A program made the position numbers and the translations under genes. A stretch of DNA of 64,000 nt from Escherichia coli (GTDB taxonomy: Bacteria; Pseudomonadota; Gammaproteobacteria; Enterobacterales; Enterobacteriaceae): the NCBI RefSeq assembly GCF_001677475.2, contig NZ_CP015229.1; one strand, 5' to 3'. Below the pieces are notes generated by a model that had not been told where the DNA came from, ran no database searches, and saw only the letters and a list, made by a program, of their open reading frames with translations. How positions within the stretch are numbered: position 1 is the first letter of the stretch; each line of letters opens with the position of its first letter. Below, in pieces: positions 39,572 to 59,163 of the stretch.

Positions 39572-40741
39572 TTAGCTGTTGGCAACGCAAACTGTTTCAG
39601 GTTGTTTTCTGGCTGACATAAACACCAGCAATAATGCCAGTCCCGCGACAATCGCCCCCATCACCGGCACAAAGCTGTATCCCAGCCCAGCGGAAATTAC
39701 CGCACCACCAGCAGCTGCTCCCAGCGCATTTCCAAGATTAAAGGCACCAATATTGACTGATGAAGACAGACCTGGCGCTTCACTGGCGACACGCATCACG
39801 CGCATCTGTAACGGCGGTACGACCGCAAAGGTTGCAGCGCCCCACACCACCATGCTAATAGCTGCGCCGAACTCATTGCGGGCCAGGAACGGGATTGCCA
39901 GCATAATCACCATCAGCAGCAACAAAAAGCCTTTCAACGTGCCGTTAACTGAACGATCTGCCAGTTTGCCGCCGAGATAGTTACCGATAGAGAATCCGAC
40001 ACCAATCAGCACCAGCATTGCCGTGACGAACACCGGCGTTGCGTGGGTAATGCTTTGCAGTACCGGAGAGATATAGGTGTAGAGGGTAAACATTGCACCA
40101 GCTCCCAGTACCGTCGTCAGCAATGCAGACAGCACCTGCGGACGCATTAATACCGCCAGCTCTTTTTTCACTTCAGGTCGCGCCCCTGCTCCACCTTTAG
40201 GTAATGAGAAGAACAGACTTACCATTGAAATCACGCCCAGCCCCGCCGTTGCCAGAAATGACATCCGCCAGCCGATGGTTTCGCCCAACCAGGTCGCTGC
40301 CGGAACGCCACCGATATTTGCCAGGGTTAACCCCATAAACATAGTGGCAACTGCGCTGGCCTGTTTATGTTTTGGCACCACGCTTGCGGCCACAACTGAA
40401 CCCAAACCAAAAAATGCTCCGTGATTCAGGCTGGTCAAAATGCGTGAAAGCATGAGAGTCATATAATCCGGCGCGATGGCGGAAAGTACGTTGCCGAGCG
40501 TGAAAATCGCCATCAGGAAAATCAACGCACTGCGGCGAGCACGATGAGAAAGTAGAAGCGTCATCAGCGGCGCGCCAACCATTACGCCAACTGCATAGGC
40601 ACTGATTAACATTCCGGCAGCGGGAATCGAGACATCCACACCGCGCGCAATGACGGGCAATAAGCCCATTGGCGAGAACTCCGTTGTCCCGATACCAAAC
40701 GCGCCAATCGCCAGCGCCAGCAACGGATAGTTAATTTTCAT
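39572..40741 (-). CDS. ydhP: MFS transporter
   Basis: 389 aa; 12 predicted transmembrane helices. Confidence 0.85.
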   Translation of the reverse strand: MKINYPLLALAIGAFGIGTTEFSPMGLLPVIARGVDVSIPAAGMLISAYAVGVMVGAPLMTLLLSHRARRSALIFLMAIFTLGNVLSAIAPDYMTLMLSRILTSLNHGAFFGLGSVVAASVVPKHKQASAVATMFMGLTLANIGGVPAATWLGETIGWRMSFLATAGLGVISMVSLFFSLPKGGAGARPEVKKELAVLMRPQVLSALLTTVLGAGAMFTLYTYISPVLQSITHATPVFVTAMLVLIGVGFSIGNYLGGKLADRSVNGTLKGFLLLLMVIMLAIPFLARNEFGAAISMVVWGAATFAVVPPLQMRVMRVASEAPGLSSSVNIGAFNLGNALGAAAGGAVISAGLGYSFVPVMGAIVAGLALLLVFMSARKQPETVCVANS

Positions 40742-40906
40742 GCCTTATCTCCACCTCTTCGCGTCATTACGCGATATTCATTAAAGTGGCGAAAGCATGA
40801 CAGCAATCACAAAAAAATGAAAATAACAAAAAGAGAAAACACTTTTGCCATTTTGCTAACAAACAGGAAAGAGAGGCGAGGGAGAACGCGCTCCCTCGAG
40901 AGGAAA

Positions 40907-40996
40907 TCAGTGCAGCGCGGCAGTCAAACCCACGGCCACGATCAAACCGAGGACGATAATCGTTGTTACCAGTGAAAATTTAAGGTCGGTGCTCAT
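40907..40996 (-). CDS. ynhF: Small hydrophobic protein (29 aa)
   Basis: Reverse complement encodes MSTDLKFSLVTTIIVLGLIVAVGLTAALH; followed on minus strand by hairpin CGAGGGAG-N6-CTCCCTCG (40877-40898). Confidence 0.6.
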   Translation of the reverse strand: MSTDLKFSLVTTIIVLGLIVAVGLTAALH

Positions 40997-41234
40997 CAAG
41001 TTTTCTCCTTTTTTATTACCACACAAAAAGTGATATTACGCATTTTTACACACTGTGATGAAAAAATCTCCCGTCATTTATAATGATAAGTGTTTTTACC
41101 ACTTCCCCTTTTCGTCAAGATCGGCCAAAATTCCACGCTTACACTATTTGCGTACTGGCCATTGACCCCTTCCTGACGCTCCGTGTCGTTTTTCCGGCGT
41201 ACCGCAACACTTTTGTTGTGCGTAAGGTGTGTAA

Positions 41235-41250
41235 AGGCAAACGTTTACCT
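41235..41250. promoter_or_regulatory. Putative PurR box (AGGCAAACGTTTACCT) in purR leader
   Basis: Core GCAAACGTTTAC resembles the PurR operator consensus ACGCAAACGTTTGCGT. Confidence 0.45.
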
Positions 41251-41294
41251 TGCGATTTTGCAGGAGCTGAAGTTAGGGTCTGGAGTGAAATGGA

Positions 41295-42320
41295 ATGGCA
41301 ACAATAAAAGATGTAGCGAAACGAGCAAACGTTTCCACTACAACTGTGTCACACGTGATCAACAAAACACGTTTCGTCGCTGAAGAAACGCGCAACGCCG
41401 TGTGGGCAGCGATTAAAGAATTACACTACTCCCCTAGCGCGGTGGCGCGTAGCCTGAAGGTTAACCACACTAAGTCTATCGGTTTGCTGGCGACCAGCAG
41501 CGAAGCGGCCTATTTTGCCGAGATCATTGAAGCGGTTGAAAAAAATTGCTTCCAGAAAGGTTACACCCTGATTCTGGGCAATGCGTGGAACAATCTTGAG
41601 AAACAGCGGGCTTATCTCTCGATGATGGCGCAAAAACGCGTCGATGGTCTGCTGGTGATGTGTTCTGAGTACCCAGAGCCGTTGCTGGCGATGCTGGAAG
41701 AGTATCGCCATATCCCAATGGTGGTGATGGACTGGGGTGAAGCAAAAGCTGACTTCACCGATGCGGTCATTGATAACGCGTTCGAAGGCGGCTACATGGC
41801 CGGGCGTTATCTGATTGAACGCGGTCACCGCGAAATCGGCGTTATCCCTGGCCCGCTGGAACGTAACACCGGCGCAGGCCGCCTTGCCGGTTTTATGAAG
41901 GCGATGGAAGAAGCGATGATCAAGGTGCCGGAAAGCTGGATTGTACAGGGTGATTTTGAACCTGAATCCGGTTATCGCGCCATGCAGCAAATACTGTCGC
42001 AGCCGCATCGCCCTACTGCCGTCTTCTGTGGTGGCGATATCATGGCAATGGGCGCACTTTGTGCTGCTGATGAAATGGGTCTGCGCGTGCCGCAGGATGT
42101 TTCGCTGATCGGTTATGATAACGTGCGCAACGCCCGCTATTTTACGCCGGCGCTGACCACGATCCATCAGCCAAAAGATTCGCTGGGTGAAACAGCGTTC
42201 AACATGCTGTTGGATCGTATCGTCAACAAACGTGAAGAACCGCAATCCATTGAAGTGCATCCGCGGTTGATTGAACGCCGCTCCGTGGCTGACGGCCCGT
42301 TCCGCGACTATCGCCGTTAA
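41295..42320 (+). CDS. purR: Purine repressor (LacI family)
   Basis: 341 aa; N-terminal [24 protein letters not shown]. Confidence 0.95.
41323..41338. promoter_or_regulatory. Putative second PurR box within purR coding sequence (GAGCAAACGTTTCCAC)
   Basis: Core GCAAACGTTTCC inside codons 10-15 of purR; consistent with purR autoregulation. Confidence 0.4.
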
Positions 42321-49886: not shown

Positions 49887-49963
49887 GCGTTCATAGCTCA
49901 GTTGGTTAGAGCACCACCTTGACATGGTGGGGGTCGTTGGTTCGAGTCCAATTGAACGCACCA
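49887..49963 (+). tRNA. valV: tRNA-Val (anticodon GAC)
   Basis: 77-nt cloverleaf with anticodon loop CTTGACATG, T-loop GGTTCGAGTCC, encoded CCA end. Confidence 0.9.
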
Positions 49964-49967
49964 TCCT

Positions 49968-50044
49968 GCGTCCGTAGCTCAGTTGGTTAGAGCACCACCT
50001 TGACATGGTGGGGGTCGGTGGTTCGAGTCCACTCGGACGCACCA
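49968..50044 (+). tRNA. valW: tRNA-Val (anticodon GAC), tandem second copy
   Basis: 77 nt, 4-nt spacer after valV; differs from valV at a few acceptor and T-stem positions; CCA encoded. Confidence 0.9.
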
Positions 50045-50151
50045 GATTTTCTTAATCTGGTCTTCTCCTTTTTCCCTCTGTTTCTTCTCTGTATCCAATA
50101 CGTTAAAAGATTTACACTGTCTTCGTATGCGTTATCAGAAGGAGAATCGCT

Positions 50152-50457
50152 ATGGCAACTTTGTTACAACTTCATTTTGCTTTTAATGGCCCATTTGGCG
50201 ACGCAATGGCTGAGCAGCTTAAACCACTTGCTGAGTCGATTAATCAGGAACCTGGTTTTCTGTGGAAGGTATGGACAGAAAGTGAAAAGAACCACGAAGC
50301 CGGTGGGATCTACCTTTTTACTGATGAAAAAAGCGCCCTTGCCTATCTGGAAAAACATACTGCCCGACTGAAAAATCTCGGCGTTGAGGAAGTTGTCGCC
50401 AAAGTTTTCGATGTCAATGAGCCACTTAGTCAAATCAATCAGGCAAAACTCGCCTGA
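50152..50457 (+). CDS. ydhR: Small dimeric alpha/beta-barrel (monooxygenase-like) protein
   Basis: 101-aa ORF. Confidence 0.8.
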
Positions 50458-58142: not shown

Positions 58143-58156
58143 TTGATCGTTATCAA
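58143..58156. promoter_or_regulatory. FNR-type box TTGAT-N4-ATCAA upstream of ydhY
   Basis: Perfect match to the FNR/CRP-family half-site spacing in AT-rich region about 200 bp upstream of ydhY start. Confidence 0.5.
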
Positions 58157-58958: not shown

Positions 58959-59163
58959 ACTTTGGACTGTAGAACTCAACGACTCAAAAACAGGCACTCA
59001 CGTTGGGCTGAGACACAAGCACACATTCCTCTGCACGCTTTTTCGATGTCACCTATCCTTAGAGCGAGGCACCACCACTTTCGTAATACCGGATTCGCTT
59101 TCCGGCAGTGCGCCCAGAAAGCAAGTTTCTCCCATCCTTCTCAACTTAAAGACTAAGACTGTC

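Follow-up and report, generated by a model that had tools for sequence, protein, structure and literature searches.

Gene content of the ydhP-purR intergenic region

The window, that is, the whole 64-kb stretch of Escherichia coli DNA that was analysed, includes ydhP (39572-40741, minus strand) and purR (41295-42320, plus strand), and between these a 29-codon open reading frame (ORF) is found on the minus strand at 40907-40996, with a TGA stop codon at 40907-40909. Read from 40996 to 40907 the sequence runs ATG AGC ACC ... CAC TGA, and its direct translation is MSTDLKFSLVTTIIVLGLIVAVGLTAALH; the peptide sequence and all coordinates given for this ORF in the initial annotation were reproduced on retranslation. 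The ORF is divergent from purR and is followed, 165 nt downstream, by ydhP. In the mechanical list of ORFs it is represented by a 39 amino acid (aa) product that runs from an upstream TTG codon. A short polar stretch (MSTDLK) at the N-terminus of the peptide gives way to one hydrophobic helix, which ends in LH. With a GRAVY value of 1.63 and a top 19-residue Kyte-Doolittle window of 2.53, starting at residue 9 (residues 9-27), the hydropathy profile fits one transmembrane helix, as had been predicted for this peptide.

The ORF is the known E. coli gene cydH, with the synonyms ynhF and cydY (b4602 in strain K-12), the renaming of ynhF as cydH/cydY and the recognition of its function both dating from 2019. 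It had previously been described as a hidden, ynhF-like gene. It is ynhF itself, and it is not hidden, being annotated as cydH, "cytochrome bd-I accessory subunit CydH", in all RefSeq E. coli records examined, including that of K-12 MG1655. The encoded peptide is identical over 29/29 residues (100 %) to chain H of PDB entry 6RKO, which carries the name 'Cytochrome bd-I ubiquinol oxidase CydH (YnhF)', and the identical sequence occurs in seven further PDB entries, including 9RZV and 9SE4 (eight entries in total). The resolved protein chain comprises 29 residues. The peptide also passes the NCBIfam equivalog NF033411 (50.2 bits, cutoff 30), with alignment across positions 1-29 of 29. A search of a local copy of Pfam with the CydH peptide returned no match, although database entries carry PF28012. 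K-12 CydH/YnhF shares its 29-aa sequence, its location (between ydhP and purR) and its annotation with the gene in the window; there is no difference at the protein level, and the coding sequence (CDS) differs by one synonymous change (position 40937). The 631-bp region around cydH is present at a coverage of at least 80 % in 5,421/5,426 complete E. coli genomes. The identity, annotation and family membership of this gene are thus established.

Conservation and selection on the CydH peptide

Homologues were sought in one genome per species with a seed alignment of ten distinct 29-aa homologues. The seed sequences were obtained with a tandem-duplicated peptide query; the database returns were mostly over-extended or frameshifted gene calls, as gene callers drop ORFs of 29 aa, and they served solely as seed. 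The scan yielded 105 confirmed relatives, the best 80 of which were analysed. These 80 loci all belong to different species of the Enterobacteriaceae, in genera including Escherichia, Citrobacter, Salmonella, Klebsiella, Raoultella, Enterobacter, Leclercia, Lelliottia, Kosakonia, Phytobacter, Pluralibacter, Atlantibacter, Franconibacter, Cedecea, Buttiauxella and Kluyvera.

In 80/80 of these best-matching loci, cydH consists of exactly 29 codons, with an ATG start and a stop codon in register. Among the 77 distinct nucleotide versions of the gene, the column entropy at codon positions one, two and three is 0.39, 0.24 and 1.23, respectively, and 28 of the 29 third codon positions are variable. 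Compared against the E. coli sequence, the proportion of synonymous differences (pS) is 0.71 and that of non-synonymous differences (pN) 0.08, a ratio of 0.12 (0.17 over all pairs), with the synonymous sites near saturation. The other five frames at the same position give pN/pS ratios of 0.30-2.45 and are interrupted by stop codons in many sequences. Nine residues (M1, L5, S8, T11, T12, L16, I19, V20 and A26) are invariant in the 44 distinct CydH peptides. The persistence of the ORF in 80/80 orthologous loci, with variation mostly at third codon positions, is far beyond chance. The CydH peptide is under purifying selection, and conservation at the amino acid level is restricted to the cydH frame; the initial annotation had named conservation at the nucleotide level only as the result that would speak against a gene, and this was not what the alignment revealed.

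The same intergenic region contains a second ORF, of 31 aa (40767-40862, minus strand), which was considered and rejected. It is intact in only 2/81 sequences and exhibits no codon periodicity among these 81 sequences, identity by codon position being 0.62, 0.65 and 0.64. The conservation test thus cleanly distinguished the real 29-codon gene from an adjacent spurious ORF of 31 codons.

Genomic context and the downstream hairpin

The divergent neighbour of cydH is purR in 80/80 loci, with the purR start codon located approximately 290-310 nt from the cydH ATG. By comparison, ydhP is found downstream in only 71/80. The remaining nine loci, among them those of Salmonella arizonae, Cedecea and Buttiauxella, have no ydhP and retain an intact cydH, with sodB being the next gene in most of them.

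A GC-rich stem-loop, CGAGGGAG-CGCGTT-CTCCCTCG (40877-40898, minus strand), begins 9 nt after the cydH stop codon. It had been noted in the initial annotation and was recovered independently by a terminator scan, as a hairpin of eight pairs (six of them G-C) with a 6-nt loop, the tail CCTCTCTTTC and a minimum free energy (MFE) of -13.6 kcal/mol. Stems of 7 bp or more, beginning 5-11 nt after the cydH stop, occur in 73/81 loci (mean z of -3.66 against shuffled sequences), and in some clades a wholly different stem, GGGCCGC/GCGGCCC, takes the place of GAGGGAG/CTCCCTC. The hairpin is thus a real, selected feature. It probably serves to form or to protect the 3' end of the transcript, as a terminator or as a stabiliser. 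The 10 nt that follow it usually contain only two to five T residues (81 loci), so that the tail is C/U-rich rather than U-rich, and because of this poor U-tract the hairpin does not represent a textbook intrinsic terminator. In the initial annotation the hairpin had been taken to suggest an independent transcription unit. Given the poor U-tract it is suggestive of independence and does not prove it; transcription of cydH independently of ydhP is likely.

These data also bear on the suggestion that the ORF encodes a leader peptide, or opens an operon with ydhP as its first cistron, and thereby regulates this MFS transporter gene without having a function of its own. Such an arrangement would be in keeping with the location of ydhP on the same strand, 165 nt downstream, and the weak U-tail of the hairpin makes some read-through into ydhP conceivable. 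However, the nine of 80 loci without ydhP retain an intact cydH beside purR, and cydH is therefore not a leader or first cistron that exists for the sake of ydhP. Furthermore, a stable hairpin follows the cydH stop in 73/81 loci, the conservation of the peptide sequence is untypical of leader peptides, and the protein is present in the oxidase complex. The leader explanation is regarded as having next to no likelihood.

Two substitutions immediately 3' of the hairpin, at 40870 and 40875, set the window apart from both K-12 and O157:H7, and render its hairpin tail slightly more T-rich (GCCTCTCTTTCC versus GCATCTCCTTCC). These changes appear to explain why, in a set of 5,425 complete E. coli genomes, the best matches reach no more than 99.7 % identity. 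Further downstream, the spacer between cydH and ydhP contains the conserved blocks TTTGTTAGCAAAATGGCAAAAGTG and GTTATTTTCATTTTTTTGTGATTGCTGTCATGC (40788-40864, minus strand), and the motif ATTGTTA[T/C]C of this spacer recurs in other genera. The conserved blocks presumably hold the promoter and operator of ydhP.

Sequence elements upstream of cydH

A Shine-Dalgarno sequence, AGGAG (41005-41009, minus strand), can be read 8 nt before the cydH ATG, within an AAGGAG-AAAAnTTGATG block that is conserved at approximately 80-100 % across 79-81 sequences. Alignment of 79-81 orthologous spacers further revealed an almost invariant block, TGTG[T/C]AAAAATG (41053-41041). Its conservation points to a putative extended -10 element, TGTAAAAAT (TG-n-AAAAAT; 41042-41050, minus strand), and the sole common variable base of the block, 41048, corresponds to the free 'n' of this element. 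From the predicted element, transcription of cydH may be placed to start near 41035, which would give a 5' untranslated region of approximately 38 nt. A generic promoter scan yielded no minus-strand match upstream of cydH, the predicted extended -10 element having been missed by the scan because there is no match to a -35 hexamer. The lack of a -35 match is common for extended -10 promoters. The promoter of purR could not be placed with confidence from the sequence.

A distal promoter candidate was also considered, comprising TTGCTC (41328-41323) and TATTGT (41306-41301) separated by 16 nt and located in purR codons 1-11, with a start at approximately 41294. Its hexamers match the consensus at only 7/12 positions. 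The start coincides with the 5' end of the match to the Rfam family RF02081, which is discussed below, and the candidate overlaps both the PurR/GalR site GTGGAAACGTTTGCT (41338-41324) and the counterpart of a Salmonella marbox (41326-41312). It was set aside, since the coordinates of this family in Rfam and in Sittka et al. are those of the intergenic boundaries, 41294 being the base before the purR ATG.

An IS1 element (768 bp, with a 9-bp target duplication) is inserted at 41017-41025 in two E. coli isolates from chicken (NZ_CP123240.1 and NZ_CP190018.1), 21-29 nt before the cydH start codon. As the insertion falls downstream of the predicted promoter but upstream of the Shine-Dalgarno sequence, cydH would be cut off from its native promoter in these isolates.

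The spacer between purR and cydH measures approximately 298 nt in 80/80 loci (the best 80 of 105 relatives). This spacer is unusually well conserved: identity to the window base averages 0.75, as against 0.47 at the third (synonymous) positions of cydH, and this conservation is one of primary sequence. The most conserved block of the spacer is the PurR/GalR-bound operator AGGCAAACGTTTACC (41235-41249, plus strand), with an identity of 0.91. AGGCAAACGTTTACC and GTGGAAACGTTTGCT are the autoregulatory operators O1 and O2 of purR, O1 being the most conserved block. Both AGGCAAACGTTTACC (41235-41249) and GTGGAAACGTTTGCT (41324-41338, minus reading) are reported to be bound by GalR in ChIP-chip, where they are listed under ynhF/purR (PMC5110547). 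The sequence at 41312-41326, within the first purR codons (minus reading GCTCGTTTCGCTACA), is the E. coli counterpart of a Salmonella MarA/RamA ChIP marbox listed as purR<>ynhF (PMC10268841). At the transcript level, a transcriptome study lists ynhF as one of five mRNAs for which the primary 5' end accumulates on inactivation of RNase G (PMC4191395), implying that RNase G trims the cydH leader.

No credible site matching the FNR or ArcA consensus was found in 41000-41294, and the reported induction of cydH at low oxygen is therefore not explained by the sequence. The only FNR-like match, at 40986-40999 (two mismatches), was rejected; it overlaps the cydH start codon, and the number of such matches across the window is at chance level.

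The Rfam family STnc550 at the cydH locus

The cydH CDS and the whole of the intergenic DNA between purR and cydH (40904-41294, minus strand) match the Rfam family RF02081, STnc550, which is typed as 'Enterobacterial sRNA'. The match extends from end to end of the model and scores 396.1 bits (gathering score 48), so that STnc550 and the cydH locus are the same DNA. The STnc550 candidate stems from cDNA sequencing of RNA co-immunoprecipitated with Hfq in Salmonella (Sittka 2008, PMC2515195). On the basis of the full-length match and this recovery, the locus could be read as a non-coding enterobacterial sRNA in which the ORF is incidental.

The structure of the family itself argues against such a reading. 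Model positions 296-385 of RF02081 correspond to the cydH CDS, and the weakly conserved (lower-case) consensus sites in this part fall at codon position three in 24/30 cases, compared to 5/30 each for positions one and two. The upstream 300 nt lack a conserved RNA fold in an alignment of 79 sequences: the RNAalifold energy is -2.1 kcal/mol, to which covariation contributes a term of -0.09, and only two of the 11 pairs in the consensus fold incorporate any double change. The purifying selection on the CydH peptide, and its physical presence in solved structures, likewise speak against an incidental ORF.

The source data point in the same direction. In the supplement to PMC2515195, STnc550 is a class IV candidate with coordinates spanning the entire purR/sodB intergenic region; six cDNAs were obtained from the control and ten from the Hfq co-immunoprecipitate, an enrichment of only 1.7-fold, and the Northern result is given as 'nd'. 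The oligonucleotide used as probe for the Northern, JVO-3266 (GCGACAATCACGCCCAG), is complementary to codons 16-21 (nt 46-62) in the CDS of Salmonella cydH, and has one mismatch to the S. arizonae locus. Considering the codon periodicity, the absence of a fold, the source data and the location of the probe within the CDS, STnc550 corresponds to the mRNA of cydH plus conserved promoter and operator DNA. The interpretation of the locus as a non-coding sRNA is held to be very improbable, and as the sole reading it is refuted by the protein evidence; RF02081 almost certainly combines the mRNA of a protein-coding gene with promoter DNA, its typing as sRNA being an error. This mis-typing is worth flagging, as annotators would otherwise label the cydH locus as non-coding RNA.

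Other features of the window

Several further observations were made elsewhere in the window. A perfect FNR consensus, TTGATCGTTATCAA (58143-58156), is located approximately 200 nt upstream of the start of ydhY (57941, minus strand) and is the sole FNR box with zero mismatches in the window. Its position fits the FNR-activated ydhY-T operon. The recently annotated small-protein gene ynhH (b4817; 64 aa, with a non-ATG start) is found at 58962-59156 on the plus strand, just upstream of pykF, and the window copy is identical to that of K-12. The Rfam family HPnc0260 ('bacterial antisense RNA') matches 50006-50168 on the minus strand with 112 bits, opposite a tRNA gene at 49968-50041 on the plus strand, which comes second after an adjoining tRNA gene (49887-49960). 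The match probably reflects a family built on tRNA-antisense sequence and not an independent gene.

CydH as a subunit of cytochrome bd-I

Membership of CydH in the oxidase complex, its position there and its induction at low oxygen are taken from the literature. An unexpected fourth subunit of approximately 3 kDa was reported in purified E. coli bd oxidase by Theßeling et al. and was determined to be YnhF by mass spectrometry (PMC6853902). According to the same source, YnhF is made at low oxygen, retains its N-terminal formyl-methionine and is encoded between ydhP and purR, outside cydABX. The orphan arrangement of cydH next to purR is also described in PMC13189123. Evidence at the protein level has been published in the form of both mass spectrometry and cryo-EM (PMC6853902; PMC9264385), and the association of CydH with CydABX is established by these two methods for the identical E. 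coli sequence. The cydABX operon itself is located outside the 64-kb window.

According to reviews and later structures (PMC8951039, PMC8585947, PMC12648545 and PMC13189123), the CydH helix occupies a cleft between transmembrane helices (TM) 1 and 9 of CydA, where it is stabilised by lipid and shields heme b595, at a site that corresponds to the menaquinone-binding site in mycobacterial bd; the E. coli bd-II enzyme is described as lacking CydH. On structural grounds, CydH has been proposed to block the wide dioxygen channel of the Geobacillus enzyme type, with O2 then taking a narrower channel, which begins in CydB, to reach heme d (PMC6853902). No phenotype of a cydH mutant is reported in those parts of the cited bd-I structure papers and reviews that were drawn upon here.

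CydH resembles CydX, AppX and CydS, which are likewise small single-helix proteins of bd-type oxidases and attach to CydA (or AppC). The gene for CydX is part of the cydABX operon, whereas cydH is an orphan gene. The two proteins also differ in their place in the complex, with CydX binding the opposite face of CydA (TM1, 5 and 6) and CydH lying between TM1 and TM9, and in their apparent role: CydX is needed for assembly and for the stability of the heme centre, while CydH seems to function by closing off access to heme b595. CydH is furthermore absent from bd-II, and the two are set apart by distinct annotated names.

There is very little doubt that the locus as a whole is best explained as a stand-alone cydH gene, transcribed divergently from purR and encoding the fourth subunit of cytochrome bd-I as one helix; none of the results speaks against this identification. 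The 29-residue product would be inserted in the inner membrane as a single transmembrane helix and would assemble with CydA, CydB and CydX into the cytochrome bd-I ubiquinol oxidase, despite the distance of its gene from the cydABX operon. Placed between TM1 and TM9 of CydA, the helix would shield heme b595 from the membrane, and by blocking the wide oxygen entry site known from the Geobacillus enzyme it may direct O2 to heme d via the narrower channel in CydB.

Significance of the cydH locus

The gene, its protein, the structure and the partner complex are all published and annotated, and as a discovery the locus carries little weight. A reader with access to the sequence only was nevertheless able to pick out a genuine gene of 29 codons. 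A further interpretation concerns the conserved spacer, which may represent a shared control region that couples cydH to the regulators acting there, or may be associated with post-transcriptional control of the cydH mRNA. This is considered unlikely. Candidate regulators of the shared spacer are provided by the PurR/GalR operators and the Salmonella MarA/RamA ChIP site, while weak Hfq association and the trimming of the 5' end by RNase G are candidate post-transcriptional inputs on the mRNA. If true, such a control region could account for the induction of this bd-I subunit at low oxygen without an FNR or ArcA consensus.
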